The translations under genes and the position numbers were made by a program. Positions 23,760 to 59,973 of a stretch of 64,000 nucleotides of DNA are shown here, one piece after another. Under the pieces are notes generated by a model. It was not told the origin of the DNA, did not search any database, and was given only the letters and a program-made list of their open reading frames with translations. The stretch is from contig JACFNL010000009.1 in assembly GCA_019454875.1 (NCBI GenBank), positions 168 through 64,167 on the forward strand, read 5' to 3'. The first letter of the stretch is position 1, and each line of letters begins with the position of its first letter. The DNA is from Candidatus Cloacimonadota bacterium (lineage in GTDB: Bacteria > Muiribacteriota > UBA6191).

Positions 23760-23794
23760 TTCAGGCATCCAAGGCTTGAGTAGGGGAGTTAATT

Positions 23795-25590: not shown

Positions 25591-25603
25591 GGAGTTCTTA
25601 GTC

Positions 25604-35500: not shown

Positions 35501-38500
35501 CAAAGAGGATTTGCAGAGTAAATCCCCCCTTAAGTTTTTCTGAGACAGGGTACACAATATCAATTCCATTTTTGCCATTTCTCCAGGAAACATCAAGCAC
35601 CTGATTTTTGTGGAGAATACTGACTAGCACCGAAGGGTTCTGGTATCCGGTACCAAAATAGGCCTTTAGGGACTGTCCTGGTAAAACAGATTCTGACTCC
35701 ACAGCAAAAAATGCGGGCAGAGGCAGATCGAATTTATCGGATGCTTCTTTTAAGACCACAAAATTGTGGGTGGTACTGATGGACTCAGACTGGGAATCCT
35801 GAGTATTCAGAATGGCTCTGTAGGCCCCGGCTGGCAGACGGACATTGACAGAAGCCACCCCAACAGGTGCATCGTAGTCCACGGTTTGAATCACAGATTG
35901 GGTTTCCCAGTGATCTATGTTTGCCAGATCACGGGTGTTATTGTCCCTTTGACGGAACCAGTCCCACCAGCTCCATTGTCTAGGGCTTGATTGGCGCACT
36001 GGTTTGGCCGGGCCTTTGAGAGCATAAATGGTTATTGTTCCCCGATTGGATACCGGTTTCTGGTTGCGGTTCTGTATTTGAACCTTTAATGGAACTTCCT
36101 TATTTTCTTTTAACCACTCATCGGTACTGACTGTGGCAGCAATGGCCTTGTATCCTAGAGCAACCGAGGTTTCTGAGTCCCTGACTTCTCCTGAACTGTC
36201 TATTACCTCGGCAAACACGGTGTAAAAAAAGGTGGGATCTGTTGCTGGATCCACCCTTTTATCAGCATGGGCCATAAAGCTGAATTTAAATTTGCCCTCG
36301 GAGTCAGTGATGGCCTCACCCCCAGCAATTTCTCTGGAACCGGCAAAGGGGTTTCCAAACCGCCACCACCAGGGCATTCTGACTTCCCGTTTGATTCGAT
36401 AACGAACCTTTTGATGGCTCATGGATGCCCCAGAATAGGCCACAGCCTTCCCGGTGATTTCCACACTCTGGTTCAATCGGGGTTCGCCTTCCACCTGGTC
36501 CAGTATCACTTCAAACTTAGGCCTTTTGTATTCCTCCACCTGAACAAAGATGCTGCCTGAGGGGTTTTGGGTAGATATGGTATATCTTCCTGTCAGGCGA
36601 TCTGTTGGAATCGTAAAACTTCCCGAGAAAGAACCAAGTTCATTGGCATTAACCTTAACAGTTTCAATAACCTGCCAGTTGGCATCTTTAAAATCTACGC
36701 TGACATTACGGCAGGGCTGGGTTTTATAGTTAAGAGCCTGATGATTCACCTGCACACAGATACCCTTAAAGCGGATAGTCTGTCCGGGTCTGTACATGGA
36801 ACGGTCACTATATAACTTTACGCTTGTACTTGGTTCTGATTCTCTTCTCCATCCAAACCCCTGCATTTCTCGAAACCAGACATCCCCATTATTGGGAGAC
36901 TTGACATGGATCAAAAAGGAGTTGTTGCGTCGGCCCTGTTTTTCCAGGCGATAGTAGCCATCCTGATTGCTTTTTACGGTACGGGAGAGGGTATAAAATC
37001 CATTATTATTTTGTGAATAAAACAGAACCTCCAGATTTTGTAGAGGTTTTCCTGAATTGGCATCCAGAAGATACCCGTCAATAGCATCACCGAGGGCCCG
37101 TAGGGTCATCTGGGTATCAGTCACAAAAAACGCGGTCTGATTGACTCTGGTCTGATTCTGATTGCGAAAATGCGGTTTGTCCGAGATAAAAATTCTGTAA
37201 TAGCCATGTTTGAGGCCGGGAATAACAATCTCTTTTTCTAGTTCCCTGAAGTCGGGGGTAGGGGGAAGTTCTACCTCAAACTGGGTTAGAGGTTTTGTTT
37301 TTAAAAGCCTTTCTCCATCATCTTCATTAATCCAGTCTCCGGGGGTTTCCCAGGCTTCTTTCATACTGTCTTCATAGTTTTGAGCATAAATTCGGATGTA
37401 CAGTCTGGTCAGGTTTTTGTACTTCAGCAAGGCTTTGGAGTTGATGGAATTAATTGTATGTTCCATCTGGACAGAAAACTCTGGTTTAAGAATTTCTGAG
37501 TTCAGTTGTTCACACAACCTAGCCCCGTCACTTCCCGGAAAGAGTGAGATGGCAAAGTCACAGTGTTGTTTGGCAGTGACCAGATTAAGATCGGCCATTG
37601 CTTTTTTGGCAATCAGATGCCAGACCATCGTAACCGTTGGGACATCGGCATAGATTTTTACAAATTCTTCATATCTTTGGGCCAGGGTTTCATCAAGTCC
37701 ACCCTGATTGGCCAGGCTTCCCAAGGATTGAAGCCTTTCCAGATCCACACTCAAAATGGCATCCCTGTCGCGCATCTGCACCATTTTCAGTATAGACTGC
37801 CAATGGCGAACTACCTTTAACCGTGGTGATTCTTCATCTTTGGTTACGGGACTCCACTCCAAAAAGGTTTCAAGCTTTGCAAAACCATCATTAAAAGCAT
37901 CCAGTTCAAAGGCCTCTCTTGGGGCTTTTATGGAGCCGGATGCCTGGGTATGAATCTCAATGGCTAGCCTTGATATAAGCTCATAGGCCGTAGCACAATG
38001 GCTTTGAGGCAATGTACCTTCTTCCACCAGACTGCTTAGATCATAAATGGGGATGTTTTTTAAGGTTTCTCCTAAAAGAGCCTCATCCAGAAGTTCGGTG
38101 ACTCTTTTATAAATTGTTGGCAGATCCCAGGTAGTAAAGTCATCACTCTGTATGGTGGAGGATTCTGTTCTTTGATTGATTCTCCATTGGTTCTGTTGAT
38201 AATAGTGCCAGTACCAGAGCCCTAAAATGGCCTTTAACATGGGGATAGATTCCGAAGGGGAGTTTTGAATCAGGGATTCGAGTTCTCTGACTTTTTCTTC
38301 GGGCTTACTGCCGGCCATATCGGCCTGGTTAACCACTTTTTTTGCCAGAAGTTTGATGTACATGCCCTTATCGTCAGCCCAATTGAGGTGGCTTAAGGCG
38401 GCCAGCAGATGTTCAAGTGCAGTTTTGGGCAGCTTGTTTTCCTCAGCTTCTTCAGCCAGCCTCAGTTCATTGTGAACCTTGGGGGAAACGCTGGCTTCAC

Positions 38501-38555
38501 TGGGCATAAAAAGACCTAGAATAAAAAAGGCGACACAGGGAATCAATCGAAACAT
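32580..38555 (-). CDS. Giant alpha-2-macroglobulin family protein, no CxEQ thioester motif
   Basis: 1991 aa with strong RBS GAAGGAG and signal peptide MFRLIPCVAFFILGLFMPSEA. It has an N-terminal helical region, a long run of beta-rich MG-like domains, then a helical TED-like region. In that region LQALPFLEEATNES replaces the usual PYGCxEQ. Confidence 0.75.
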   Translation of the reverse strand: MFRLIPCVAFFILGLFMPSEASVSPKVHNELRLAEEAEENKLPKTALEHLLAALSHLNWADDKGMYIKLLAKKVVNQADMAGSKPEEKVRELESLIQNSPSESIPMLKAILGLWYWHYYQQNQWRINQRTESSTIQSDDFTTWDLPTIYKRVTELLDEALLGETLKNIPIYDLSSLVEEGTLPQSHCATAYELISRLAIEIHTQASGSIKAPREAFELDAFNDGFAKLETFLEWSPVTKDEESPRLKVVRHWQSILKMVQMRDRDAILSVDLERLQSLGSLANQGGLDETLAQRYEEFVKIYADVPTVTMVWHLIAKKAMADLNLVTAKQHCDFAISLFPGSDGARLCEQLNSEILKPEFSVQMEHTINSINSKALLKYKNLTRLYIRIYAQNYEDSMKEAWETPGDWINEDDGERLLKTKPLTQFEVELPPTPDFRELEKEIVIPGLKHGYYRIFISDKPHFRNQNQTRVNQTAFFVTDTQMTLRALGDAIDGYLLDANSGKPLQNLEVLFYSQNNNGFYTLSRTVKSNQDGYYRLEKQGRRNNSFLIHVKSPNNGDVWFREMQGFGWRRESEPSTSVKLYSDRSMYRPGQTIRFKGICVQVNHQALNYKTQPCRNVSVDFKDANWQVIETVKVNANELGSFSGSFTIPTDRLTGRYTISTQNPSGSIFVQVEEYKRPKFEVILDQVEGEPRLNQSVEITGKAVAYSGASMSHQKVRYRIKREVRMPWWWRFGNPFAGSREIAGGEAITDSEGKFKFSFMAHADKRVDPATDPTFFYTVFAEVIDSSGEVRDSETSVALGYKAIAATVSTDEWLKENKEVPLKVQIQNRNQKPVSNRGTITIYALKGPAKPVRQSSPRQWSWWDWFRQRDNNTRDLANIDHWETQSVIQTVDYDAPVGVASVNVRLPAGAYRAILNTQDSQSESISTTHNFVVLKEASDKFDLPLPAFFAVESESVLPGQSLKAYFGTGYQNPSVLVSILHKNQVLDVSWRNGKNGIDIVYPVSEKLKGGFTLQILFVQENQIYQFSKKIQVPFVAQELDLSFETFRSKLSPGETETWKIKVKGKDKPLDPAEVLATLYDQSLDAYMPHSWKGFSDLFYQDSEASEPEINLVLKDFLHWIDRHQIRHASVDRRHPVLPSQIRYYFSRFFPVELQRRGMPMGRLMSKQSLSMDGEAESMMAVDAFAGAPMPASAPGSSMELKEKAEGGSVVKNGIKSPTPPPVTTRTDLRETAFFKPHLSVSDDGTVSLEFTMPDSLTRWKFMALAHSQSMQSGLISTSIVTQKDLMVEPNPPRFLRQGDTIHFPGKISNLTDAEMTVEARIRFFNAMTGAEITSDLCASSVLEIQIPKRQSETARFPVIVPDITHPIRWEITVRSANLSDGEEQLLSVLPRRIFVQESIPLWISGTGRKTFEFDKLLYSDSSSTLSHERLVLQIASNPAWYALQALPFLEEATNESIDCAFARLYANLLGSKVIRGYPQIRTVLEQWKGTDAMKSQLSKNESLKSVGLLETPWVLDAQAEEKNKARLANFLDENRLASEVASATKKLKTMQLSDGAWPWFPEGRPSFYTTLHIASGFGRLIHMGVAVDQEMVHKALPWLDQEIRKTYESIIRYKRLEENNYTNTIALYLYARSFFLNDVSIASENRLAYEYFLEQARKYWTKLGNRMSEGHTALALLRNNDKDIPALILKSLKERSSFSEEMGLYWKDTEISHFWYRAPIETQAMMVEVFSELNASEQDIKNLKIWLLKQKQTRDWKTTTATTNAVHALLSSGSDLLSSTEITRVLLGNVAINPDKVEAGTGFYEKSFQKREIEASFGNIVLEKQEDGIAWGGLHWHYFEDISKITPHHGGALSLEAQVFVKRDSDAGEILVPIADTEPKVGDTIVSRLILKTDRDLEYVHLKQSRASGTEPGVVLSGWRYRDGLAYYESTKDTATHYYIEYMPVGTYVFEAPLKVFHKGSFETGLSEIRSLYAPEFAAHSQSFLLRIND

Positions 38556-38631: not shown

Positions 38632-40332
38632 TCAGATTGTTGCGGCAACAACCTGATCGTAGGTACTCAGACCCTGTAAAACCTTGCGAATACCAGATTC
38701 TTTCAAGAGTTTCAGGCCACAGTTCTTGCGAGCATGCCGAAACAGCTCGAATTCAGAAACTTTTTTGCCCACTAGCTCGCGCATTTCATCATCGGGGATA
38801 AGAATCTCGTGAATTCCCATTCGACCTTTGTATCCGGTAAAGGCACATTTATCACAGCCTACATTTTTGAAAAGCTTAAAGGGTTTGTCAGTCTTAACAC
38901 CCATGCTGGCCAGATAGTCTGGAGCAGCCATATATTCCGCCTTACATGAAGTACAAAGACGGCGCACAAGTCTCTGGGCAATGATACAGGCAATGGTTGC
39001 GGCCACAAGAAAGGTATCACAGCCCATGTTTTCCAGACGGCCAATGGTACCAATAGCAGAATTTGTGTGAATGGTAGACAATACAAGGTGGCCTGTCAGT
39101 GAGGCCTGAATGGCAATTTCAGCAGTTTCCAAATCGCGGATCTCCCCCACCATGATAACATCGGGATCCTGACGCATGATGGCCCTTAACCCATTTGCAA
39201 AGGTCATGCCTGCCTTGATTTCCACCTGACACTGTGAAATGTTATCCAGACGGTATTCCACCGGGTCTTCCATGGTGGTCACATTGATATCATCCGTTGC
39301 CACTTCTTTTAAAACTGTATAAAGGGTTGTGGTCTTTCCAGAACCAGTTGGCCCGGCTGCCAGAATAATTCCATGGGGTGCCTGAATTACTTTGGTCAGT
39401 TTTTCTTCATCATCTTTGGCAAATCCAAGAGCAGAAAATTCAAGTACAATACTGGATGTATCCAAAACGCGGATTACGATCTTTTCTCCATAAATTGTGG
39501 GCAGGGAGGACACACGAAAGTCAATCTCCCGTCCTTCAAATGGCAGACGAATGCGTCCGTCCTGTGGGGCTCTTTTTTCCGAAATATTCAGATCCGCCAT
39601 TACCTTGACAATGGTAATGATGTTGTTTTGCAGATGTTTGGGCGGAGATGGGATCTCCCGGAGCACCCCGTCAATTCTGAGACGGATGATGAATTTTTTC
39701 TGACGGGGTTCAATATGAATATCCGAGGCCTTCTGACGGATGGCCTGTTTGAATAATTCCTGAACATATTTGACCGTTGGAGCGTCCTTCTCATCCTTCA
39801 TGGCCGCCGAAATTTTGTCCATGGCGGTTACGGTGTTCTGATCAGGACCATCCTCTTCACTGGGTCCGTCGCCAAAATCCTCCATGGCTTTTCTTAAATC
39901 GGCACTGTCTCCAAAGGTACTGTTTAACAGAGATTCAATACGGTACTTGTTGGCGTAAAAGGTATTGAGCCTATATCCAGTGTCTCTAAAAATCTCCTGA
40001 AACACATACAGATTCATGGGATCAATGGTTACCACATCCAGAACCTGTCCCCTTCTGGCGATTGGCAGAATCATATGCTTGCGCATGGTGGCTTCAGGCA
40101 GGACATTTCGGAGTTCTTCGGGAAAAAGCACCTGTTCCTTGTGAACAAAGGGAATACCACTGAGCTCAGCAAGCACGGGAAACAGGTAGTCATCCTGGGT
40201 TCGTTCTGATTTAAGCAGGGCATCATCGTAAAAGATATGCTTTTCCTGCATCAGGGCGTTTACATTGCCAAAACCCTCATGGTCAAGATGGACATCTTCT
40301 TTAAGGCGTAGTCTGAGTCTGTTTTCCTGCAT
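38632..40332 (-). CDS. GspE/PilB-family type II secretion / type IV pilus assembly ATPase
   Basis: Walker A GPTGSGKTTTLY, Walker B DVIMVGEIRD, His box LVLSTIHTN, tetracysteine CTSC...CDKC and an N-terminal T2SSE_N-like domain. First ATG is 40332; the ORF is also open from TTG 40341. Confidence 0.9.
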   Translation of the reverse strand: MQENRLRLRLKEDVHLDHEGFGNVNALMQEKHIFYDDALLKSERTQDDYLFPVLAELSGIPFVHKEQVLFPEELRNVLPEATMRKHMILPIARRGQVLDVVTIDPMNLYVFQEIFRDTGYRLNTFYANKYRIESLLNSTFGDSADLRKAMEDFGDGPSEEDGPDQNTVTAMDKISAAMKDEKDAPTVKYVQELFKQAIRQKASDIHIEPRQKKFIIRLRIDGVLREIPSPPKHLQNNIITIVKVMADLNISEKRAPQDGRIRLPFEGREIDFRVSSLPTIYGEKIVIRVLDTSSIVLEFSALGFAKDDEEKLTKVIQAPHGIILAAGPTGSGKTTTLYTVLKEVATDDINVTTMEDPVEYRLDNISQCQVEIKAGMTFANGLRAIMRQDPDVIMVGEIRDLETAEIAIQASLTGHLVLSTIHTNSAIGTIGRLENMGCDTFLVAATIACIIAQRLVRRLCTSCKAEYMAAPDYLASMGVKTDKPFKLFKNVGCDKCAFTGYKGRMGIHEILIPDDEMRELVGKKVSEFELFRHARKNCGLKLLKESGIRKVLQGLSTYDQVVAATI

Positions 40333-40337
40333 ATTAA

Positions 40338-40742
40338 TCAACGGGTGCTACGAGGTGTAACAATGGGGCGTTTGCGCTCGGTTACGGACTGAATTCTGAA
40401 TGAGGATTTTCGGGAACTGGCGAAAAAGCCCGAGGTCATGCGGAAGTTGGCTGTATCTTCGCTGGTACCCGTAACAGGCTGTCCCATTGTCCCAAACAAT
40501 CGATATCTTCTGTCAGGAGAAACAAATGAGGAGCTGGCCACATTTGCATCAATGGCAGTGGAAGCACCAGCTGGAAACACATGTTTTAAAAGGAAAAAAC
40601 CTGAACCGGAATCTCCCCCGATATTTGGGGTCTGATACAGGGTTTCACCCCTCTGCCCTAGCTGCAAATCCAGTGCCGATTCGGTTTCTTCGGCACTTGG
40701 GCTAAAGTTTAGAAGTGCAAGTAATACAATCAGGGTTCGCAT
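40338..40742 (-). CDS. Small secreted G/S/T-rich protein upstream of the ATPase
   Basis: 134 aa with signal peptide MRTLIVLLALLNFSPSAEE and a basic C-terminal tail. Its stop lies 5 nt before the ATPase ATG. Confidence 0.5.
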   Translation of the reverse strand: MRTLIVLLALLNFSPSAEETESALDLQLGQRGETLYQTPNIGGDSGSGFFLLKHVFPAGASTAIDANVASSSFVSPDRRYRLFGTMGQPVTGTSEDTANFRMTSGFFASSRKSSFRIQSVTERKRPIVTPRSTR

Positions 40743-40778
40743 AGTTCAAGTGTAGCATTTAATATATAATCCTGAAAG

Positions 40779-41285
40779 ATGAGAGATAAAGGAATTGGGG
40801 TAAATATGATAGTGTTTTTAACCGAACGAGGCAGAGTTGGTCTGGAATTCTCGGATTATGGACTGTTGTCCTTCAAGCTGCCAGGAGATATTACCGAGAA
40901 TACCCCCCTTACTTCTGTGCCCGATTTTGCCCGTCCCCTGGTTGATAAAATCATTGCTTATTACCGTAATCAGGTTGTTGATTTTAGTGATGTGGTATTG
41001 GATATGCGTGGGATCACGGAGTTTTCCCGTCTGGTGTACAACTCCTTAAGAACCAGGGTATTGTACGGACAGAGGCTGAGTTATTCCCAGCTAGCTGAGT
41101 TATGCGGCAGAGCCAAGGCCTACAGAGCAGTAGGAACAGCACTGGCAAAAAATCCCTGGCCTCTTATAGTGCCATGCCACAGGGTGCTTGGTAGTGGGGG
41201 AAGTCTAGGCGGATTCAGCGGGGCTGGGGGTATTGCCCAGAAAAAAGCCATGCTGGATATGGAGTCAGCTACTCTCTCAGTCTGA
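40779..41285 (+). CDS. ogt: Methylated-DNA--protein-cysteine methyltransferase
   Basis: C-terminal IVPCHRVLGSGGSLGGFSGAGG active-site block and helix-turn-wing SYSQLAELCGRAKAYRAVGTALAKNP. The start may be ATG 40806. Confidence 0.85.
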   Translation: MRDKGIGVNMIVFLTERGRVGLEFSDYGLLSFKLPGDITENTPLTSVPDFARPLVDKIIAYYRNQVVDFSDVVLDMRGITEFSRLVYNSLRTRVLYGQRLSYSQLAELCGRAKAYRAVGTALAKNPWPLIVPCHRVLGSGGSLGGFSGAGGIAQKKAMLDMESATLSV

Positions 41286-41664
41286 GAACCAGAGGTTCCC
41301 CACCTGTAAGTCCGTGAAAGTCATAAGTGATTTCTTCGCGGCCATAACGGGTAATGGACTGATTGTCCTCGTGAAGCCACCAGGTTACAGATTCCTGCTC
41401 CATGGTATTGCCATTGAGATGGATTCTTTGCAGTTCGATAATCCCATCTATGGGTTGAGAAATGGTGACAGCACTTCTTATATCAGAGCGCAGTCTGGAT
41501 TTCAAAACTGTCAGCTTACGCCAGTATTGTGATTCTTCATCCTCTTCCTGCCCTGAATTGGAGTAGGAGATCAACATAAACCAAAGAATCCCAAGCATCA
41601 GAACAAAGAGGGTTATGGACAGAACCAGCTCAATCATGGTGAAGCCACTACGATTGTACAACAA
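41269..41664 (-). CDS. Prepilin-type (GspJ/minor-pseudopilin-like) protein
   Basis: Leader plus cleavage/methylation motif M(L)YNRSG/FTMIELVLSITLFVL with Glu at +5. It only has TTG starts (41664 or 41661; AGGAAGG RBS), overlapping the last codons of the HEAT gene. Confidence 0.7.
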   Translation of the reverse strand: MLYNRSGFTMIELVLSITLFVLMLGILWFMLISYSNSGQEEDEESQYWRKLTVLKSRLRSDIRSAVTISQPIDGIIELQRIHLNGNTMEQESVTWWLHEDNQSITRYGREEITYDFHGLTGGEPLVLRLRE

Positions 41665-43351
41665 ACACCTTCCTTACCAGAATCTGCTCCGTATCATCCT
41701 GCCATTCTCCGTAAAATCGTACCTTTTGACCAGGAGTTATAACAAGATTCATTTCCTCGGGAAGTATCAGAGTCTGAGTATGTTCCTTAAGTCGTACCCT
41801 AAGCATATTGGGGCCCGGCAAGGATTCGACAATGCCCTCACCCTTGCGATATTCAAAAGCATCGGAACTGAGGATTTTTTTGAATTCTGGCAGCCTGTTC
41901 TGGGCCGTAGTCGGTAAGGAGGCTTGAGGAATTGCAGCCCAGATTACATAAATCACGCCAAGTGCAGTTGCCGTGAGGGCTGGCAATGTCCATTTCCTGC
42001 TTTTAGGGATAGGTTTTGCCGGAATAGAAACCTTACTCGTAGGACTTGTTTTTGGTTCTGGATCAGGGGTGGTTTCAAACTCAGGTAAAGGGGTCTGTTT
42101 TATCAGATTTTTTATAAAACTGCGTTTTGACTCAGGCATCTTTTGGGAAATCTGAATCAGGATCTGGCGTTTTTCCTCAGAAGAATAATGGATTAATCCT
42201 TGGCTAAGAAGGCTAAAGAGGGGCATTTCATCGATACTTTTCCATTGGGAAAAGCCAATTTCCCAAAGTGTTTCCGAAAATTGAGCTCGATTGATACGCG
42301 GATAAATTCCACTAAGTAAAATGGTGCCATGACGATCCCCAGTAACCGCGTTTTGCACAAAACCTAAAAAATCCACCGGTGAAGATTGATACCACAATAA
42401 AGAAACGCTTAAAAAAAGCTCCTTTTCCCTGGCATCACTGAGGTTGGGAAAATTTTTTCGTTTTATTGCCATGAGGTAGGCATCATCTCCACCCAGTGCG
42501 TGTAAAAACTCTACGCAGGGGTAACAGAGATCGGGATGTTCCAACAAGGGTTTGAGAATTGTTCTCATGGTTTCAAGCTCATGATGGGGCAGTCGCTTGA
42601 TGACCTCAAACAGGTTAAGAAGTGTGGGGGTTTCAAGATTATGGTATTGACTGAGTAGCCATTTCAGGTTCTCGATTTGGTCAAAATCTGGCTCCCAGGT
42701 ACGGCAGTAATCCTCAAGTTTTTTTGAGGCAATCAGCCAATTTAATGTTTCCTGGCTTGGTTTACCTGTTTGTAGTTCAAATTGTTTCTGTTTTTCCTGT
42801 TCCTGGGCATTGGCTTCGGCCAGAAGGTTATCTTTTAATTCTGAAAAATAGTTCAGTACCTTCTGTGCTTCCTTTTGTATCTGGGGGCTCTGGTTTGTGA
42901 GCATCATATCCACCATGTCCAGACAATCATTGAGCTTCAGATGCCTGATCAGGTATAAAACGGCCAAACAGCGCCGTGGTTCAAGAGGGTTATACACCTT
43001 GTCCACTAGCTGCTTCAGCTCTTTTTGACTGATTTGGGATGAAAGGGCCTTGATACAGGCTGAAACCACCCTTGGTTCCTGATCCGTAAGAAAATTGGCA
43101 AAGATGGGGAGAATTTTCTGTTCTCTGACTCGATGATAAAGAAGCTCCAGGGCTTCAATAGAATTGGCTCTTACCCTTCCGTCATTGTGTTTAAGGCAGG
43201 GGAGTATCAGCAAAATGTCCTCTGATTCACCCTTGTGTCCCAGTGCTTTAACCCAGGTAGCTAAAGCATGGGCATCAGAAAGGATCTCATTTCTTAAGCC
43301 TCGCAGCTCAGCCAGGGTTTTATAAGTATAGATGTTTGCAGGTTCTGTCAT
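41648..43351 (-). CDS. HEAT-repeat protein with single TM helix and small C-terminal extracytoplasmic domain
   Basis: 567 aa with HEAT-like units (DGRVRANSIEALELL, EPRVVSACIKALS, SPQIQKEAQKVL). TM helix WTLPALTATALGVIYVIWAAI lies near residue 460, followed by an ~85-aa beta-looking tail (MLRVRLKE...VRFYGEWQDD...VRKVFVV). Confidence 0.55.
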   Translation of the reverse strand: MTEPANIYTYKTLAELRGLRNEILSDAHALATWVKALGHKGESEDILLILPCLKHNDGRVRANSIEALELLYHRVREQKILPIFANFLTDQEPRVVSACIKALSSQISQKELKQLVDKVYNPLEPRRCLAVLYLIRHLKLNDCLDMVDMMLTNQSPQIQKEAQKVLNYFSELKDNLLAEANAQEQEKQKQFELQTGKPSQETLNWLIASKKLEDYCRTWEPDFDQIENLKWLLSQYHNLETPTLLNLFEVIKRLPHHELETMRTILKPLLEHPDLCYPCVEFLHALGGDDAYLMAIKRKNFPNLSDAREKELFLSVSLLWYQSSPVDFLGFVQNAVTGDRHGTILLSGIYPRINRAQFSETLWEIGFSQWKSIDEMPLFSLLSQGLIHYSSEEKRQILIQISQKMPESKRSFIKNLIKQTPLPEFETTPDPEPKTSPTSKVSIPAKPIPKSRKWTLPALTATALGVIYVIWAAIPQASLPTTAQNRLPEFKKILSSDAFEYRKGEGIVESLPGPNMLRVRLKEHTQTLILPEEMNLVITPGQKVRFYGEWQDDTEQILVRKVFVVQS

Positions 43352-43387
43352 TGACGATAATTTCAGTTTCTATTATAGTCTTAATCA

Positions 43388-43882
43388 ATGTCAACAAGGA
43401 TCAGAACTAACAGCTTTTGGGGTTTTAGTCTGGTTGAAGTTTGTATTGCCATTGCTGTTCTTTCCCTGATGGTGACGGTTCTTTATTTTGGTCTTGGTTC
43501 TGCAAGGCAGCAGAAGCAGAGTGGAGACAGACAGGTACAGTTGCAACAGGTTAGTGCACAGTTTCTGGCTCTTTTAAGAAAGGATTTGCGAACCGCATTG
43601 GCCGTGGATGTATCTGATGATGCATTGATGATTCGTACAGGCAGAGAAACAATTGCCTGGATGAGAGAGGGAAATGACATACGACGCATAGACGAAAATG
43701 TAAAACCACAGATTTTGTCATTTCAGTCAGGTCTTGGTATGAATCAGATTCTTAACATTTCTATGACCCCCGATTCTCGCGGATTGTTGCAGGTAAGTAT
43801 CAGTGTAAATCAGGACAACCAAACGGTCTTTCAGATCCAGGAAAAAATTCAGATCCCTCAAAGAGGGGAAGGGGGCCTGTGA
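43388..43882 (+). CDS. Prepilin-type (GspH/minor-pilin-like) protein
   Basis: MSTRIRTNSFWG/FSLVEVCIAIAVLSLMV is a class-III signal peptide with Glu at +5. 164 aa. Confidence 0.7.
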   Translation: MSTRIRTNSFWGFSLVEVCIAIAVLSLMVTVLYFGLGSARQQKQSGDRQVQLQQVSAQFLALLRKDLRTALAVDVSDDALMIRTGRETIAWMREGNDIRRIDENVKPQILSFQSGLGMNQILNISMTPDSRGLLQVSISVNQDNQTVFQIQEKIQIPQRGEGGL

Positions 43883-44832
43883 TGGCTCAATTTTTATCAG
43901 GCATTATTTTTTTGCTGGTTTCATTAACCTCTGCAACTGAAATTGTTGTTGATGACAAATCACCTGGGTGCAGACTGGAGGGAAACTGGGCAGACAATCT
44001 CGGAGACAATCCGGAGGGCAAGTCATTTTCTTCGGCAGGAACCGTTGGAGGCAAGTATCTTTATACCAGTAAGCATGGCCGCTGGAAAAGAACAGGCCGT
44101 GAAAAGGCCTATTTTACTCCCGATCTTCCTAAAGCAGGTAAGTACAAGGTTGAGGTAAGTTACAGGGCATCAGAAAATCGATCTCCTCGGGTAGAATGGG
44201 AAGTTTCACATGCCAGTGGCAAAAAACGCAGTATGGTCAACCAAAGAGGTGATGGGCTGGTCTGGCATAATCTGGGAACCTTTGAATTTGAGGCTGGAAA
44301 AAAAGGTTATGCTGCCATGGTTAGTGATGGGGGAGAAAGTGCCTGTGTGGATGCGGCCCGCTTTACCCTGGTTAATCCCGGCACCGGAAATCCTTCCAAT
44401 CCAATGGAAGAAGTGATTGGGGGGACTCCAGTAACCCCTGCGACTCCAGAAACCACAGAAAAACCCTCCCAGACTCTAAATATTTCCAAAGGCAGGGACT
44501 CTGAACATACCTTTTCAAAAGATGGAAAGGCCGTTGTTCGCATTGGACTCATGACTTATGGCAAAGCCTCGGCTCTGGTAGAAATTATCAAGGCTGATGG
44601 AAGCAGCCAGAAATGGCTAAGCTGGGAGCGTGAAAATGATTCTGATCCTTCTCCTCTATTGGTAAATGGAACCCCTCATGAGGAATCAATTTTTGAAGAA
44701 AAGGCAGGAGATCCTTCAGCCAGGGTGGTGACTGTTGAAACCTCAGTGAATGCTTCTGACACGATCAGGGCAAGCTTAAAAGGCAGTTTTGGTCGGGCGA
44801 ATCCTATGCTTCGGGTACGAATTTTTGAATGA
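43879..44832 (+). CDS. Secreted two-domain protein: golvesin-C-like beta-sandwich + private C-terminal domain
   Basis: The signal peptide is followed by IVVDDKSPGCRLEGNW...FTPDLPKAGKYKVEVSYRASENRSPRVEWEVSHASG...WHNLGTFEFEAGKKGYAAMVSDGGESACVDAARF. This resembles the module RefSeq calls golvesin C-terminal-like (from memory). The C-terminal ~115 aa is paralogous to the C-terminus of 47187..47909. Confidence 0.55.
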   Translation: MMAQFLSGIIFLLVSLTSATEIVVDDKSPGCRLEGNWADNLGDNPEGKSFSSAGTVGGKYLYTSKHGRWKRTGREKAYFTPDLPKAGKYKVEVSYRASENRSPRVEWEVSHASGKKRSMVNQRGDGLVWHNLGTFEFEAGKKGYAAMVSDGGESACVDAARFTLVNPGTGNPSNPMEEVIGGTPVTPATPETTEKPSQTLNISKGRDSEHTFSKDGKAVVRIGLMTYGKASALVEIIKADGSSQKWLSWERENDSDPSPLLVNGTPHEESIFEEKAGDPSARVVTVETSVNASDTIRASLKGSFGRANPMLRVRIFE

Positions 44833-45242
44833 GAAGGGGTTTGGGATTAGCGGAAGTGGTTCTGGCAATCGCATTGATCAGTCTAAGTTCAGTGCCAGTG
44901 TTTTATCTGTTTTCTACAAGCCGCCGCATGCAGGGTTCCGCTAAATACCTGGCCTTGGCTATCAGCGAGGCTAATTCGATGCATGCAGCCATCACGGCTA
45001 GCGGCAAGACGGGGGTTTTGCCAACCCTGATTGAAATGACCTCGGATGAAAATCTTATGGGCGAGTTGTCTTTGTCTGAACTGGGGCTTTTACCATTAAA
45101 GCCCCCATTGTGGCGCAAGCTGAGCCTCAGCCCGATGGTTGAATCAACCTCAATTCTTAAAGTGGAAATTGAAGTGGGATGGGACAGGCATAATGAAGAT
45201 TCATCACGATACCGCCTGATGGGGTTCATCAGGACAAAATGA
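44829..45242 (+). CDS. Prepilin-type (GspI-like) protein
   Basis: MRRG/LGLAEVVLAIALISLSSVPVF has a short leader, Glu at +5 and a hydrophobic helix. 137 aa, with ATGA overlaps on both sides. Confidence 0.6.
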   Translation: MRRGLGLAEVVLAIALISLSSVPVFYLFSTSRRMQGSAKYLALAISEANSMHAAITASGKTGVLPTLIEMTSDENLMGELSLSELGLLPLKPPLWRKLSLSPMVESTSILKVEIEVGWDRHNEDSSRYRLMGFIRTK

Positions 45243-47176
45243 TTAAGCAAAACGGATTTGCACTGCCCGTGGCAGTGATTCTTCTTTTAGTCATTCTGGG
45301 TCTGGGTTCAGCATATTTTACAGTGTCCAGGCAGCAGCTTTTCAGCATGAATAGACACGCAGCTTCGGAGAGGGCATATCACATTGCCCAATCTGCCCTG
45401 ATTGTGGCGCAGATGGTTTTTGATGAATCAAGAGATTTTATAAATCGAAGTGATGAGGATTCCTGGCCCAAGGAGAGTAAAGCAGATCCCTTGCTTCGTG
45501 GCTGGATTCAGGCCATTCTGAATTCAGATGGACACTTGCAGAAATCCCAGGTTGAGTTTGATCTTGAGCACCCACTGATTGACTACTTGAGAGAACAGGA
45601 TGGTACGGATCAGATCCGGGTAATCATGCGAATGTTACCCTCACAACCAATTTTTTCAGGAACCGGCTTTCCCATCAATGAAAATGAGATTACAACAGTA
45701 GTAGAGATTGAGGCCGAGGCCCTAGTAGGTGAGGTCAGTTCAAGACTATTGGCAAACAGAGAAATTCGATACATCAACATTATCCCATCTCCTTTATCCA
45801 GATTTACCCTGATGGTACGAGAATTTGTAGAAACGCCCATGCAGGAGTCAGTCAATTCGTTGCCAATGATTTTACAAAACGGAAAAGTTCTGGCCTGTAC
45901 TCCATCCCATTCCCCAACAGAAATTTCCACCATGCTTGAGACTCAGGGCTGGGTTTATCTTGGCGGAACAGCAGAGATTCGCATGGGGGTAAACTCGGGT
46001 AATGGTCTGATTAGCCATCGTTCCCCCTGCCTGCTTGAAGATATGTATCTTTATGATGTGGATCCAGAAGACTCGTTTTCATCAAGGGATGATTTAATGT
46101 ACTACACCAGGGAGACTCACTTGAGCCCACAATTGCAGGGGGCATCGGAGCAGGAGGCTCTGGCTCTGGTGTCTAGTGATGATTTGAAGACGGGCAGTCT
46201 TTTATTGTTTGGCTCAGAGGAAGCATTCAGTCCCACAATAGTATTTGGTCCAGTTCGAAAAGTCAGTGCCCTGTTACAGGGTATTTACAATACAGAAAAT
46301 GGAAAATATTCTCCATTGCCTCTGTTAAACCCTTCCCAGTTTTTAGGGGGCCCCTGGCCGGGAGGATTTACCGAGCCGACAAGACTGACCATAGTGGATA
46401 ATTTTGATTCAGATTTTGCACGGTACCAGATCCGTTCTTCAAAACTTTATACAACCGATGCCAATTTTTTGATCACCAGATTGTTAAAAGATTCAGAGGC
46501 CTTCAGTATTCATTCTCTCGAACCGGCAACCTGGCCGGAAGATTCAAACCTAAAAAACCTGAGCATTGCCGGAATCCCCGCACCCTGGCATCAGGCAGTC
46601 CATGCTACTGCGTATCAGCTCAAAGATGATTTAGGTAATACCTATTTTGATGGAGGGGACTTTTCCCAGTTGACGGAACTGCCCTGGATTAACAGAAAGT
46701 CAGGATATCGCTTTCGATCAGGGGCAGATTTTTTAAGGCTTCAGGCCAAAAATGGCGAACTGAAACTGTCAGGTATTGCGGATATCAGAGGGGATCTGGA
46801 AATTACTGATTCGTTACGGGTTCCTTCAGGTCAGGGCGGAATTCTGATCGTTGAGGGCAATATCCGTATCAGGGCAGCAATTGAGGCCGAGGACTCGGAG
46901 CCACTGACCCTGATTTCTAAAACAGGTTCCATAGAAGTGTTAACCTCTGAAAAAATTGAGGCTGGACTGGTTTGCCTGATGGGTACGGCTGAGTTTCCTT
47001 CTGGATTTGATGTTTCTGGTTTTGTCAGTGCCAAGCAGATACAGAAAAATCCATTGGAATCCGCCCAGCCAAGAAGAATCAGCTACAATACAAAGATGGA
47101 TCCAGCCAGTTCGGTGCATTTTCGACGCAATTTCAGAATGATGACGGAACGGGGATGGCAGCTAGCTATAAAATAG
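45239..47176 (+). CDS. Large GspK/PilX-like pseudopilin-family protein
   Basis: 645 aa. N-terminus MIKQNG/FALPVAVILLLVILGLGSAYF has no Glu at +5, as in GspK/PilX-type proteins. The remainder is unrecognised. Confidence 0.5.
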   Translation: MIKQNGFALPVAVILLLVILGLGSAYFTVSRQQLFSMNRHAASERAYHIAQSALIVAQMVFDESRDFINRSDEDSWPKESKADPLLRGWIQAILNSDGHLQKSQVEFDLEHPLIDYLREQDGTDQIRVIMRMLPSQPIFSGTGFPINENEITTVVEIEAEALVGEVSSRLLANREIRYINIIPSPLSRFTLMVREFVETPMQESVNSLPMILQNGKVLACTPSHSPTEISTMLETQGWVYLGGTAEIRMGVNSGNGLISHRSPCLLEDMYLYDVDPEDSFSSRDDLMYYTRETHLSPQLQGASEQEALALVSSDDLKTGSLLLFGSEEAFSPTIVFGPVRKVSALLQGIYNTENGKYSPLPLLNPSQFLGGPWPGGFTEPTRLTIVDNFDSDFARYQIRSSKLYTTDANFLITRLLKDSEAFSIHSLEPATWPEDSNLKNLSIAGIPAPWHQAVHATAYQLKDDLGNTYFDGGDFSQLTELPWINRKSGYRFRSGADFLRLQAKNGELKLSGIADIRGDLEITDSLRVPSGQGGILIVEGNIRIRAAIEAEDSEPLTLISKTGSIEVLTSEKIEAGLVCLMGTAEFPSGFDVSGFVSAKQIQKNPLESAQPRRISYNTKMDPASSVHFRRNFRMMTERGWQLAIK

Positions 47177-47186
47177 GGAGATAGGG

Positions 47187-47909
47187 ATGCAAAAAATCGG
47201 TTTTTTTTCTATCGTCTTTGCTACGGGAACTCTCATGTCTGAAGTATCTGTTGAGGTGGGAAAGGGTAGTGAAGGTTTTGTTGAAGTGATCAGCACATCT
47301 TCCTCCGTTTTGAGTACTGAGGTTATCTGGATACCTGTAGAACCACCCCAGCTGTTGCCAGCTCCAGCCCCTAACCCCACTGTAACTCCCTTGATTCCGG
47401 TTCATCCGGCTTTATCTGAAACTCACCTTGTGACTGAACCAGGGGACAGAATTGGAATTTCGGGACCACCTGCTTTAGCAGAGGATGTTTTGAATGGAGC
47501 TTTTACCCCACCCACTCCCCTTGGGGATATTAACCTGAGTAGAGCAGGAACCCAGAACAGATCAGCACTGATTGCTGGAACGGTACAGATCAGGCCTTAT
47601 CTGTTCACATATAATACTGCTTCGATTGTGGTCCGTCTCTATGAGGCGGATGGAACGGAGGTACTGTTTGGAGGGCGGCCTCTGCTTCAGTGGAGAAGAA
47701 ATGATGACAGAGACGCATCTGGGGTACATTTCAAAGGAGTGAGGGATGCTTCCTCCATGGTGATTACGGCTGGGGATCCATCTCCTCGCACTGGCCTGAG
47801 TTATTCATTTACCATCAATGCATCCCAGAAGATTCGGGCTAGTATGTCAGGCAATCCCGTGGCAGGTACGGCCTATTTAAGGGTTAGTGGTCCGGCAGGT
47901 ATGTTCTGA
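47187..47909 (+). CDS. Secreted protein sharing the private C-terminal domain of 43879..44832
   Basis: 240 aa with a signal-like N-terminus and a Pro-rich linker. The C-terminal VQIRPYLFTYNTASIVVRLYEADGT...AGDPSPR...INASQKIRASMSG...LRV aligns without gaps to VRIGLMTYGKASALVEIIKADGS...AGDPSAR...VNASDTIRASLKG...LRV. Confidence 0.55.
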   Translation: MQKIGFFSIVFATGTLMSEVSVEVGKGSEGFVEVISTSSSVLSTEVIWIPVEPPQLLPAPAPNPTVTPLIPVHPALSETHLVTEPGDRIGISGPPALAEDVLNGAFTPPTPLGDINLSRAGTQNRSALIAGTVQIRPYLFTYNTASIVVRLYEADGTEVLFGGRPLLQWRRNDDRDASGVHFKGVRDASSMVITAGDPSPRTGLSYSFTINASQKIRASMSGNPVAGTAYLRVSGPAGMF

Positions 47910-48337
47910 TGCGATTTGTTTTTCTTTTGTGCATTTTGTTTCAGGGATGTCTGTTTCAGGATAGTGATGGGAAAGCATCTGATTTACCAAATGACGATCC
48001 AGAGGCAGCATTACTGATGCCTAAAACAGTTACAAAGTGGTTGCTTGTTGGTTCACCAGAAGGACAATGCTCAGAAATTGAGCAGTCCAATGAGGTAGAA
48101 ATTGAGGGTTTGATATTTAAAGCCACACTCAAGAGTTCCAGCAGACTTCGGTTGCAGGTGGAAGAAAATGATCTGGCAGACCTTGGATTAGAGGATGTGG
48201 ATCAACCTATTCCTTTTACAGCATCAGTCCACTTAAAAAATCTTGAGATTAAGGCCCGTGAGGGAGGGGCGAGGTTTGATAAAAGTGGAGACTGTTTGTT
48301 ACAAGGGGGATTTTTGATTACGGTGACTCGGAACTGA
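47909..48337 (+). CDS. Small lipoprotein-like protein
   Basis: 142 aa. MRFVFLLCILFQGC has a lipobox-like Cys. The start overlaps the upstream stop (TGATG). Confidence 0.45.
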   Translation: MRFVFLLCILFQGCLFQDSDGKASDLPNDDPEAALLMPKTVTKWLLVGSPEGQCSEIEQSNEVEIEGLIFKATLKSSSRLRLQVEENDLADLGLEDVDQPIPFTASVHLKNLEIKAREGGARFDKSGDCLLQGGFLITVTRN

Positions 48338-49430
48338 GGTATAAATCGGTTGTAGCATACCGCAGTAGAGCTTCCAGTAGATCCGGTCTGTAGATCAGAG
48401 GCTGCAAAGGAAAGTCCGTTAACAAAAGATTGGCCAGGGCCATTTCCGGGTGAGAAGTGATTTTCTGCCAGGCCAGAATCAGTTTTTTTCTGTGTTCTGA
48501 ATCTGATTCCAGGATTTTTTTTGGATCGGAAAACATTGGATGGGAAAATGCCAGAACTTCGGATTGGGCCAGAATATCGGAAGCAATCAGGTCAGGATAC
48601 ATTTTTTCAAACTCTGAGCGTTTTAAGTCCTTGAAGATAGCGTAAAAAATTCCAGCCACCAGTTCTGTACAGGTTCTCATGGGCCGACTCAGGATATTGG
48701 AGTTTTTTGAAATTTCCCTGGCTTTACTGGAAAAGGCTTCCGAACGAAGGGCCATATATGCCCAGGGGTTCATAAAACTTTCAGAAAGGCTTGATTCGGA
48801 GAGATTTTCAAACAGGTCATTGCCTAAAAGTCGCAGGGGCTCACCATCTTTGGATACAACTACACCCACATGGGTGAACCAGGAAGTTTGTCTGCCGCTG
48901 TAGGGATTCAGATTGGTAACAAAAAGGATGTCACCGAACTGAAGGCTCAGATCAGGAACAGCCAATATGGGGTAACGGTTTGATATGCAATTAAGACCAT
49001 CACACTCCACAACCGTTTTTTGATTCTCCCGTCTCAGATAATGTTCCCCGTTTAACATTTCCTCAACAGACCCATCCAAAGCAAAACGGGTCAGTCTTTT
49101 GTTGATAAAATCAGCATCCACAAGCATTTGCCCTGAAGGAAAAAACAATTGCAGGGTCAAAGGCATCAAAAGCCCCTGGCGGCGGGTTTCTTTAAGCAGG
49201 ATGTTCGAGTTTTTATCCAGTCGTACACAGTCAAGCAGTTGCGAATTGATGCTGGTACACACCGGAAAACTGTTGCAAAATGCCTGTTTTAAGGCAAGCA
49301 ATAGCAGAATTGTACAGGTAATGATATTTGACACAATCACAAACAGGATTATAATCGATATTATGGGGATCGTGTATACAACAGGATGGAATATGAACCT
49401 GCTCTTTGTTTTTTTAGTGTTATTTGCCAT
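48318..49430 (-). CDS. Membrane-anchored permuted papain-like (NlpC/P60 superfamily, YiiX/YaeF C92-like) protein
   Basis: The N-terminal TM helix is followed by GDILFVTN...WFTHVGVVV...RTCTELVAGIF. This matches the permuted His-then-Cys order of YiiX (GDLIF...SHVGII...YCSELVW, from memory). Confidence 0.45.
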   Translation of the reverse strand: MANNTKKTKSRFIFHPVVYTIPIISIIILFVIVSNIITCTILLLLALKQAFCNSFPVCTSINSQLLDCVRLDKNSNILLKETRRQGLLMPLTLQLFFPSGQMLVDADFINKRLTRFALDGSVEEMLNGEHYLRRENQKTVVECDGLNCISNRYPILAVPDLSLQFGDILFVTNLNPYSGRQTSWFTHVGVVVSKDGEPLRLLGNDLFENLSESSLSESFMNPWAYMALRSEAFSSKAREISKNSNILSRPMRTCTELVAGIFYAIFKDLKRSEFEKMYPDLIASDILAQSEVLAFSHPMFSDPKKILESDSEHRKKLILAWQKITSHPEMALANLLLTDFPLQPLIYRPDLLEALLRYATTDLYLSSESP

Positions 49431-50262
49431 GAGTGGCGAGGTTCATGCTGGTGGAAAAAAGAAAACCGTCAACACATATATCACCGAGTCATGGAGCGAA
49501 AAGGATTATTTTGGCTCAGGGACTCATATCACCCTGGATAAAATCCGCCCCAATATTTATCTTCAGGTTCATAAGGTGGACGGTGAGTTAAATGATTTAG
49601 TTGGTGTTCCTAATGGCACTCAGGCAGGAGAAGGTGATTTTGTAGATGCTACCGTATATGGAGCCTATGATCGTTTAAACATGCTGACCCGAATCGATTT
49701 TGCCCGGCCGATTGCCACGAGAGGGTATGGGGACTGGTCCAATGATCAAAGAATCTGGGACATTGCCAAAAATTATAGGGACAGCAGTGGCAATAATCTG
49801 CTGGAGCTTTTACCTGCAATGAATGGGGCTAGGGGGACTCGCTACCGCTTCATCATATCTGTTGAGGATAACACGCCTTTCTGGTTTAAGAATGAGGGTG
49901 GCCCGGAAATGTATTTCCCTTATGAGCTGATCATTTTTCGAATCACTGAACAGGCTGGTGGTACGGCGGATGCCAATGCTTTTGAAGAGACAGGAATCAA
50001 TGATGAGCTGATTGTGATTCGTAAGGATCAGGACTTCAGGATCCGGGATATGCCGGGGCAGTATCGTCTGCGCAATGGACGGTTTATGTATAACTTTACA
50101 GTGTATCATCAGTTTAAACTGGCTACGGATTATTTTTTGATGGTCAGTGCTCGGGATATTGAAGACAACGAGCGAATTTTAAAGACCCCCATTTCTATGG
50201 GTCAGCTTGAGGGTATTCAGCTTCAGAACAGCAATCTCAGTACGGTCAAGGACAATAACTAG
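49393..50262 (+). CDS. Secreted protein of unknown function
   Basis: Start chosen at ATG 49393 (AGGATGGA upstream), which gives a textbook signal peptide MNLLFVFLVLFAMSGEVHA/GG. ORF-track start 49099 is antisense to the neighbouring gene. No family recognised. Confidence 0.55.
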   Translation: MNLLFVFLVLFAMSGEVHAGGKKKTVNTYITESWSEKDYFGSGTHITLDKIRPNIYLQVHKVDGELNDLVGVPNGTQAGEGDFVDATVYGAYDRLNMLTRIDFARPIATRGYGDWSNDQRIWDIAKNYRDSSGNNLLELLPAMNGARGTRYRFIISVEDNTPFWFKNEGGPEMYFPYELIIFRITEQAGGTADANAFEETGINDELIVIRKDQDFRIRDMPGQYRLRNGRFMYNFTVYHQFKLATDYFLMVSARDIEDNERILKTPISMGQLEGIQLQNSNLSTVKDNN

Positions 50263-50277
50263 GGTCCTGGAGGTAGT

Positions 50278-52500: not shown

Positions 52501-52506
52501 GGCTTG

Positions 52507-54657: not shown

Positions 54658-54712
54658 AGAACCTCTATGATATCATGCGATATCCATAGATTCTATCTAC
54701 TCGGCTATACCT

Positions 54713-56931: not shown

Positions 56932-56944
56932 AGTCTATAGTTTA

Positions 56945-59932: not shown

Positions 59933-59973
59933 AATCATTGTAAAGCATGGTCAAAATATAGCCATAAGTGATT

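Follow-up and report, generated by a model that had tools for sequence, protein, structure and literature searches.

A conserved minor-pilin module with secreted non-pilin partners and a candidate ComZ-like tip subunit in an uncultivated diderm bacterium

The DNA considered here is a 64-kb stretch (the window) of contig JACFNL010000009.1 from Candidatus Cloacimonadota bacterium (GenBank assembly GCA_019454875.1; GTDB lineage Muiribacteriota, UBA6191). The locus under study, at window positions 38632–48337, encodes four pilin-like proteins, a PilB/GspE-type ATPase and several secreted or membrane-bound proteins. We consider it fairly likely that a type IV filament receives its ComZ-like tip or priming complex from this locus, together with a non-pilin partner protein that may bind glycans, and its core machine from genes elsewhere. 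The pilin genes on the one hand, and the gene pair for the ATPase and a 134-amino acid (aa) protein on the other, are two separable modules that lie apart in relatives. Minor-pilin tip operons are known already (Thermus pilA1-3/comZ, gspHIJK, fimU-pilVWXY1); what is new here is the family of the large pilin and a ~125-aa C-terminal domain (C-domain) in its secreted partners.

RESULTS

Four pilin-like proteins are encoded in the locus

Type IV pilins and pseudopilins share a short basic leader ending in Gly, a hydrophobic α1 helix of ~20 residues and Glu at position +5. We searched every window open reading frame (ORF) of at least 50 aa for this motif with a regular expression, trying all start codons. 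Only four real candidates emerged, the remaining matches being respiratory membrane proteins, and these are the same four genes that an earlier, sequence-only reading of the window had picked out. Together with two genes for secreted proteins, they make up the following set (slashes mark the predicted cleavage sites):

43388–43882 (+): small minor pilin, 164 aa; first gene of the plus-strand operon; SFWG/FSLVEV, with Glu5
43879–44832 (+): secreted 317-aa protein; signal peptide, Golvesin_C β-sandwich resembling a carbohydrate-binding module (CBM), linker, ~125-aa C-domain
44829–45242 (+): small minor pilin, 137 aa; MRRG/LGLAEV, with Glu5 and a Pro at alignment position 23
45239–47176 (+): large ComZ-like minor pilin, 645 aa; KQNG/FALPV, without Glu5; pilin-like domain and β-solenoid-rich body; proposed tip or cap subunit
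47187–47909 (+): secreted 240-aa protein; signal peptide, Pro-rich linker, ~125-aa C-domain; conserved non-pilin member of the module
41269–41664 (–): small minor pilin, 131 aa (130 aa from the next start); NRSG/FTMIELV, with Glu5

The class III signal is present in the 131-, 164- and 137-aa proteins (G/FTMIE, G/FSLVE and G/LGLAE), each of which has a transmembrane (TM)-like helix after the motif. The 645-aa protein (G/FALPV) carries the pilin N-terminus only as a GspK-type variant, since Glu5 is absent; a missing Glu5 is a habit of GspK and PilX. Beyond their N-termini, the small pilins resemble known proteins only as generic pilin α1 helices and through weak matches to ComGF, GspJ and XpsI profiles. 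The 131-aa protein matches Pfam N_methyl with E = 5.5e-5; the 164-aa protein does so weakly, below the gathering score (E = 5.5e-3), and gives weak NCBIfam matches to ComGF, XpsI and GspJ. For the 137-aa protein there was no Pfam match, but it fits the prepilin motif; Glu9 and Pro23 are invariant in its family (alignment A5), and a profile search of the PDB with this family returned pilin α1 helices only. The H-, I-, J- and K-like labels that the four proteins had been given were not verifiable by hidden Markov model (HMM).

Tight spacing of the genes, claimed previously, is borne out by the DNA. Junctions overlap at 43879 (GTGATG), 44829 and 45239 (ATGA in both) and 47907 (TGATG), and the stop codon of a gene for a HEAT-repeat protein overlaps the start of the 131-aa pilin gene. 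Upstream of the plus-strand operon we noted one regulatory candidate:

43351–43379 (+): promoter-like site, TTGACG-17 nt-TATAGT (10/12 match), in the 36-bp divergent intergenic region before the 164-aa gene

The total number of promoter-like sites in the region equals the expectation from shuffled sequence, and hence this site is weak evidence for a promoter.

The pilin genes are conserved as a unit in distant relatives

Genomic contexts of relatives, designated by L numbers and each seen within its available flanks, were compared locus by locus, without automated synteny statistics. Two near lineages, with 645-aa proteins 88% and 66% identical to that of the window, keep the entire order HEAT-131 / 164-317-137-645-240-142 (numbers are protein lengths), as well as the adjoining order MGMT-134aa-ATPase-α2-macroglobulin (A2M). 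Further away, where the large protein is ~30% identical, a core of five genes recurs in L015, L021, L026 and L031: three small pilins with Glu5, the ~650-aa pilin-like protein without Glu5, and a secreted protein of the 240-aa type. Four of the five core genes are seen in L020, which is cut off upstream. Gene orders in these contexts are as follows:

L015: pilin, Golvesin_C protein, pilin, 690 aa, pilin, 267 aa
L020: (cut off), pilin, 663 aa, pilin, 254 aa
L021: 825-aa double Golvesin_C protein, pilin, 702 aa, pilin, 268 aa
L026 and L031: pilin, pilin, 660 or 662 aa, pilin, 252 or 251 aa

The prepilin motifs are kept in the orthologs. Those of the 164-aa pilin, with a G/F..E motif, are found in L002, L004, L015, L021, L026 and L031, while the 137-aa gene stands directly upstream of the large pilin gene in every context (L015, L020, L021, L026, L031). 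Orthologs of the 240-aa protein (29–30% identity) are encoded directly downstream of the pilins in the same five loci. An ortholog of the 131-aa pilin lies between the large pilin gene and the 240-like gene in L015, L020, L026 and L031. The 131-aa gene is a member of the pilin module that has been relocated to the divergent HEAT operon in the window lineage. The flanks of the distant pilin operons consist of housekeeping or unrelated genes. These comparisons support the view that the pilin genes are a real, conserved functional unit.

Two further observations concern the surroundings of the module in relatives. Genes for an extracytoplasmic function (ECF) sigma factor and a FecR-like anti-sigma factor flank it in L018/L019 (1948–8427) and L026 (13188–14637), which hints at control of the pilin module by envelope signals. 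A second family of large pilin-like proteins (605–668 aa) is encoded near the ComZ-like module in L018 (4996–6813, +) and L031 (13103–15109, –); its members have a G/FSMVI-type N-terminus without Glu5 and a common C-terminal motif, PGPPDSTGAKYSG, and the window encodes none of them.

The ATPase and the 134-aa protein form a separate module

On the minus strand, the locus begins with two further genes:

38632–40341 (–): PilB/GspE-type ATPase; T2SSE (E = 1.8e-138) and MshEN
40338–40742 (–): secreted 134-aa protein with a basic C-terminal tail; always directly upstream of this ATPase clade

The start codon of the ATPase is probably the ATG at 40329, which gives a protein of 565 aa, the length of the L007 ORF. 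The stop codon of the 134-aa gene is 5 nucleotides (nt) before this ATG. As proposed in the sequence-only reading, this is the one GspE/PilB-family ATPase of the locus, and its translation contains the Walker A motif GPTGSGKT, the Walker B region DVIMVGEIRD and the tetracysteine CTSC...CDKC. Membership of Pfam T2SSE is clear (461.6 bits versus a cut-off of 24.9); the scores for the PilB and GspE equivalogs both fall short of their cut-offs (TIGR02538, 569.7 versus 675.65 bits; TIGR02533, 566.1 versus 630.25 bits). The clade is sharply bounded: its members are 67% or more identical to the window ATPase, and no other ATPase exceeds 46%. Its 134-aa companion had no Pfam, NCBIfam or PHROG match; alignment A2 brings together versions from five lineages with 29–92% identity. 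NCBI labels the more distant relatives of the ATPase as Cloacimonadota.

We examined whether this gene pair accompanies the pilin genes in other lineages. In L007, where the ATPase is 81% identical, the order 134aa-ATPase-A2M is found along with the same downstream block of unknown genes as in the window, among them homologs of the 370- and 740-aa proteins, and the whole HEAT-to-lipoprotein block is absent, together with the MGMT-like gene. In L010, L011, L013 and L014 (ATPase ~70% identical), a protein of ~135–146 aa and the ATPase are followed by a TPR protein, with no pilin genes by the pair. Conversely, there is no ATPase near the pilin module in L015, L020, L021, L026 or L031. The DNA pattern for a PTGSGK Walker A motif was found in none of 28 loci of distant 645-aa relatives, again within the available flanks; as a control, it is present in every ATPase-derived locus that spans this part of the gene, and in L002 and L003. 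ATPase loci L011/L012 and large-pilin loci L016/L017 are from the same two samples, on different contigs with matching G+C content. None of six contexts has a pilC/gspF gene beside this ATPase.

The 134-aa and ATPase genes are therefore a separate conserved module, which stands beside the pilin module only in the window lineage. These data argue against the earlier claim that the module has its own ATPase. Of the idea that the whole locus is one functional unit, what survives is the joint conservation of the pilin genes; the ATPase, HEAT protein, A2M and lipoprotein part from them in relatives. Likewise, gene order is kept for the pilin core and for 134aa-ATPase, but 134aa-ATPase-A2M is not found beyond L007.

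A cheA-W-B-R-Y-Y operon lies directly upstream of the ATPase pair in L010, L013 and L014. We considered this as evidence for pilus-linked chemotaxis and downgraded it, since the window encodes the flagellar P-ring protein FlgI (62334–63347, –; E = 2e-105) and the Che genes may serve flagella. A separate observation concerns the UBA6191 metagenome-assembled genome (MAG) GCA_002422125.1, in which ATPase fragments (L008, L009) are 98–100% identical to the window ATPase and the 645-aa protein (L005) is 66% identical. Two explanations offer themselves: a far higher rate of evolution in the pilin module than in the ATPase, or a mixture of two related populations in this MAG.

The 645-aa protein resembles ComZ in predicted architecture

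The large pilin had no sequence match in Pfam, NCBIfam or the PDB. A word-index search with the 645-aa sequence and with a 45-sequence profile gave only three near relatives, while an exhaustive profile search of representative clusters (50% identity) retrieved 202, of which 48 had E ≤ 1e-30. The better-scoring ones are mostly full-length, at ~640–750 aa. The family, with at least 202 clusters, occurs in UBP17, in one MAG annotated as Candidatus Riflebacteria and in other uncultivated lineages; an 11-sequence alignment was used to scan metagenomes for it. Its N-terminus has the form [RK]-G/F-x-L-P, with Gly at –1, Phe at +1 and Pro at +4, and no member has Glu at +5.

Modelling with AlphaFold2 (AF2) depended on the depth of the alignment. 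Three sequences gave an unusable model (predicted local distance difference test score, pLDDT, 43.7), whereas 45 sequences gave a pLDDT of 89.2 and a predicted TM-score (pTM) of 0.85. The latter model shows a long helix at the N-terminus, a sheet of pilin type and a large β-rich body resembling a solenoid, with C-terminal strands at residues 632–644. When the model was compared with the PDB by Foldseek, the top match was Thermus thermophilus ComZ (6qvi; E = 6.9e-5, probability 0.99), and the next matches were β-solenoid ice-binding proteins, a bactofilin and a streptococcal minor pilin. On these predictions, one chain combines a pilin-like domain with a large β-solenoid. ComZ itself is described (PMC6561018) as a GspK-like pilin domain with an ice-binding-protein-like solenoid inserted before the last pilin strand; the structural relatives reported there are those that Foldseek finds for the 645-aa model. 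The same source proposes that ComZ caps the competence pilus and binds PilA2 and, through two lysines, DNA. Our data support a GspK/PilX-type tip position for the 645-aa protein.

Two secreted partners share a C-terminal domain

The 317-aa protein, described in the sequence-only reading as golvesin-C-like, indeed contains Golvesin_C (PF25275) at residues 23–162 (E = 3e-19; 69.8 bits versus a gathering score of 31.6). This N-terminal domain matches residues 932–1027 of a Paenibacillus xanthan lyase (6f2p; E = 3.3e-12), within its C-terminal, non-catalytic part. The matching module would correspond to the xanthan-binding CBM84 for which the structural study of 6f2p is cited elsewhere (Jensen et al., 2019), and the Golvesin_C domain of the 317-aa protein may bind carbohydrate.

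As also suggested before, the ~125-aa C-domain recurs in the 240-aa protein (BLASTP 6e-13, 31% identity over 152 aa). It had no Pfam match and no sequence match in the PDB, and 13 of its residues are invariant across lineages (alignment A7). The Golvesin_C protein has an ortholog in L015 and is 46–60% identical to the 825-aa protein of L021. Its 46–60% identity between lineages whose large pilins share only ~26% implies strong constraint. It is missing from L026 and L031, however, and hence we regard it as an accessory component. Taken together, the evidence supports the assignment of both β-sandwich proteins to the module, and beyond Golvesin_C they belong to no described family.

According to the sequence-only reading, the locus would turn out to be an ordinary minor-pilin or gspHIJK operon if the 317-, 645- and 240-aa proteins fell into known families. 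HMMs do not place them in PilW, PilX, PilY1 or GspK; the 645-aa protein, on the other hand, is structurally like ComZ, so that part of this concern holds. A literature search on UBP17, on golvesin with pilin and on Cloacimonadota pili returned nothing relevant.

Core filament genes are absent from the window

Pfam scans, which took in essentially all window ORFs of at least 150 aa, revealed no T2SSF, Secretin, Peptidase_A24, PilM/N/O/P or second T2SSE in the 64 kb, in agreement with the earlier statement that platform, secretin and prepilin peptidase are lacking there. Predicted TM segments were counted for proteins checked within 32.6–57 kb, and none of these had three or more. Of a type II secretion system (T2SS), the window thus holds an E-type ATPase and minor pilins only; of a type IVa pilus it lacks PilC, PilQ, the alignment complex, a retraction ATPase and a major pilin. 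One caution here is that core genes missing from a MAG fragment do not amount to a reduced machine.

DISCUSSION

A proposed tip complex that would depend on a distant core

We envisage the following scheme. The pilin module (43388–47909, +, and the 131-aa gene at 41269–41664, –) would encode a tip or priming complex. Its four pilin-like products would be processed by a prepilin peptidase encoded elsewhere and would nucleate at the inner membrane, on a PilC/GspF-type platform likewise encoded elsewhere, to prime filament assembly, with the bulky ComZ-like 645-aa subunit capping the filament. The common C-domain could dock the 240- and 317-aa proteins on this tip, much as PilY1 sits on PilVWX or CofJ on CofB. 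Where Golvesin_C is present, the tip would then display a glycan-binding module for attachment to polysaccharide or particles. The major pilin and secretin, too, would be encoded elsewhere, and the PilB/GspE-like ATPase of the lineage would be the probable drive. The second module (38632–40742, –), with the extension ATPase and its 134-aa partner, is the obvious candidate motor; its place beside the pilin module is a rearrangement of the window lineage and not a defining feature. Docking by the C-domain, glycan binding, use of the neighbouring ATPase and the location of the core elsewhere in the genome are the parts of the scheme that we infer.

Several points weigh against this scheme. The TM-score between the 645-aa model and ComZ is only 0.20–0.24, with a root-mean-square deviation (rmsd) of ~28 Å, and profile searches of the PDB with alignments A1 and A3 gave no ComZ sequence match at E ≤ 10. 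For both reasons we call the protein ComZ-like in architecture and not a ComZ ortholog; the modelled resemblance may have arisen by convergence. Neither a platform nor a peptidase, a secretin or a major pilin has so far been observed in this organism, and dependence on a distant core is our assumption from general knowledge of type IV filaments. The protein downstream of the pilins in L016 and L018 is at best a doubtful homolog of the 240-aa protein. Because L026 and L031 lack the Golvesin_C protein, glycan adhesion cannot be the general function of the module. Finally, C-domains would have to dock on pilins, and the 317- and 240-aa proteins could instead be cargo.

This last possibility is at the heart of a different reading, in which the module encodes the tip of a T2SS-type pseudopilus, a GspHIJK-like periplasmic piston that exports the 240- and 317-aa proteins as cargo and does not incorporate them into a filament. 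The ATPase has near-equal scores for GspE and PilB, four pilin-like proteins with one large member lacking Glu5 mirror GspH/I/J/K, and both partner proteins have Sec signal peptides, one of them with a Golvesin_C domain homologous to a module of a secreted polysaccharide lyase. Moreover, the pilin domain of ComZ is itself closest to GspK (PMC6561018). We nevertheless judge a pseudopilus unlikely. No GspD, F, C, L, M or G gene was found near the module in the contexts read, and the GspK HMM (NF037980) matches the 645-aa protein only at the N-terminal helix (E = 0.085; 12.4 bits versus a cut-off of 130). The precedent for a β-solenoid cap is ComZ, the proposed tip of the Thermus competence pilus. 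A small non-enzymatic protein is in strict synteny with the pilins across deep divergence, which leads us to regard the 240-aa protein as a structural partner rather than cargo.

With ComZ as the best structural match, the 645-aa protein might be its functional equivalent, receiving DNA for natural transformation. Transformation requires ComZ, which binds DNA and has its gene among pilA1-3 (PMC6561018). The lack of sequence similarity, however, leaves the DNA-binding lysines unmappable; ComEA, ComEC and DprA were not found in the window by Pfam; and the CBM-like module on a partner in some lineages points to glycans, not DNA. A competence role seems to us a rather long shot. The sequence-only reading had left two options, a satellite minor-pilin or priming module that borrows a core encoded elsewhere, and a self-contained reduced filament in which ATPase, pilins, HEAT protein, β-sandwich proteins and A2M work without platform or secretin. 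The former fits better. The latter is favoured by the failure to find platform and secretin in 64 kb, by synteny in three close lineages, and by the HEAT protein, whose gene is coupled to a pilin gene and whose topology (cytoplasmic domain, one TM segment, periplasmic domain) is like that of GspL. We think it highly improbable, given that the ATPase pair occurs without pilins and the pilin module without ATPase, HEAT or A2M genes, that an unrelated MGMT gene stands between the blocks, and that A2M follows the ATPase only in the window lineage and L007, a TPR protein taking its place elsewhere. To our knowledge, all characterised PilB/GspE ATPases act through a PilC/GspF platform. An undescribed system without a core machine, with HEAT protein, A2M and lipoprotein as partners, is unsupported: its components separate in relatives, and the case for a reduced filament comes solely from genes missing in 64 kb of a genome that is incomplete.

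Comparison with known minor-pilin operons

The closest parallel to the ComZ-like tip complex that we favour is the Thermus locus pilA1-pilA2-pilA3-comZ, where a large pilin-like protein is likewise encoded among small minor pilins. In both large proteins a hydrophobic N-terminal helix and a pilin-like domain are combined with a large β-solenoid related to ice-binding proteins, and both lack pilin hallmarks: Glu5 is absent from the 645-aa family, and PilFind misses ComZ (PMC6561018). The two differ in that the 645-aa family has a clear G/FxLP prepilin-like N-terminus and no detectable sequence similarity to ComZ. No major pilin gene adjoins the module described here, and the module includes a secreted partner with an undescribed domain, sometimes with a Golvesin_C paralog; none is mentioned for Thermus in the available part of that report.

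Like gspH-gspI-gspJ-gspK, the module has overlapping genes for four pilin-like proteins within one operon, and the protein of greatest size lacks Glu5 and is expected to cap the filament. The GspK, GspJ and GspH HMMs score far below their cut-offs, though, no other gsp genes adjoin in any context examined, and the extra domain of the 645-aa protein is a β-solenoid, not the α-domain of GspK. The fimU-pilV-pilW-pilX-pilY1-pilE operon of Pseudomonas and Myxococcus is similar in that minor pilins are encoded with a secreted non-pilin protein (there the large PilY1) and in that it lies apart from pilB, pilC and pilMNOPQ. PilY1 is a component of the tip and priming complex, with an N-terminal domain that is adhesive. 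The 240-, 317- and 645-aa proteins have no Pfam match to the PilY1/PilC β-propeller, or to anything other than Golvesin_C; the non-pilin partner is small (240 aa) with a new ~125-aa domain, and the tip pilin is ComZ-like, not PilX-like.

In the CofB-CofJ and TcpB-TcpF pairs, a secreted protein from the same operon binds the tip pilin. In type IVb systems of this kind the genes for ATPase and platform are part of the same locus, which is not so for the module. CofB, a minor pilin related to GspK, has additional β-rich domains (PMC6561018). Neither enterotoxigenic Escherichia coli (ETEC) CofB-CofJ nor Vibrio cholerae TcpB-TcpF shows a sequence or fold match to our proteins, and the operon organisation differs. 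As for the ATPase, it resembles PilB, GspE and MshE: its T2SSE domain is full-length, the N-terminal domain is of MshEN type, and both Walker motifs (A and B) and the tetracysteine are present. It differs from them in forming a tight separate clade, below both equivalog cut-offs, that is always preceded by a secreted protein of ~135 aa.

ComZ has been described as a unique tip pilin of Thermus; our results suggest that a pilin domain combined with a β-solenoid characterises a family of considerable size, as yet unannotated, in uncultivated phyla, and always in company with the same secreted partner. Two new domain families for annotation are the large pilin and the C-domain of ~125 aa, and the module provides a testable model in which type IV filaments gain tip functions by swapping modules on a docking domain. 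A bolder view, which we put forward tentatively and with more doubt than belief, is that the ~650-aa family represents widespread, unannotated tip pilins of ComZ architecture, the C-domain a new obligate class of non-pilin tip protein analogous to PilY1 and CofJ, the Golvesin_C fusion a polysaccharide-grappling pilus, and the ATPase clade with its 134-aa protein a dedicated motor.

Lineage-specific neighbours and other genes of the window

Three genes in or beside the locus had been taken for partners of the pilins:

41648–43351 (–): HEAT-repeat protein, 567 aa; HEAT_2 (E = 1.4e-8); cytoplasmic HEAT domain, TM segment 455–475, periplasmic tail of ~90 aa
47909–48337 (+): putative lipoprotein, 142 aa; coupled to the 240-aa gene via TGATG; imperfect lipobox LFQGC; no Pfam match
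32580–38555 (–): α2-macroglobulin, 1991 aa; A2M, MG2 and bMG10; long N-terminal extension; no CxEQ thioester motif

The proposed partnership does not hold for any of them, since all are absent from the module in L015, L020, L026 and L031, and the MGMT-like gene separates the blocks. The HEAT protein is conserved in L002–L004 only; a HEAT protein encoded near the module in L021 has no specific similarity to it, there is none in L015, L026 or L031, and we rejected it as a conserved partner. The lipoprotein was seen only in the close relatives of the window (L002–L005), with no equivalent recognised at the same position in L015, L020, L026 or L031. A2M follows the ATPase only in the window lineage and in L007, where it is 34% identical, and no other lineage has it near the pilin module. 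The 76-nt gap between the ATPase and A2M genes, which we confirmed in the DNA, contains a promoter-like site of its own for A2M. The HEAT protein, lipoprotein, MGMT-like protein and A2M are thus not conserved members of the module. The MGMT-like gene (40779–41285, +; DNA_binding_1, E = 1e-25) lies between the ATPase pair and the pilin/HEAT block; it and the 131-aa pilin gene share 17 nt at their 3' ends.

Downstream of the locus, a block at 48318–57763 without Pfam domains encodes proteins of 370, ~300, 740, 514 and 225 aa and a TPR protein. The 740-aa protein is rich in Cys in its C-terminal half, with a double TM segment at its centre. This block stays syntenic with the ATPase pair in L007 (1–9000) and, by gene size and order only, apparently also in L011 (1–9500).

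The remainder of the window bears on the lifestyle of the source organism. A respiratory cluster at 11775–26650 (+) encodes a multihaem cytochrome c, alternative complex III (molybdopterin-like, NrfD-like and ActD subunits), SCO1, caa3-type oxidase subunits I–IV and haem O synthase. Because the genes for alternative complex III, caa3 oxidase and FlgI are all present in the window, the organism is a respiring, flagellated diderm. At 59210–60816, genes for a SEC-C-motif protein and an HNH endonuclease-domain protein adjoin on opposite strands and may constitute a mobile or defence-related islet.

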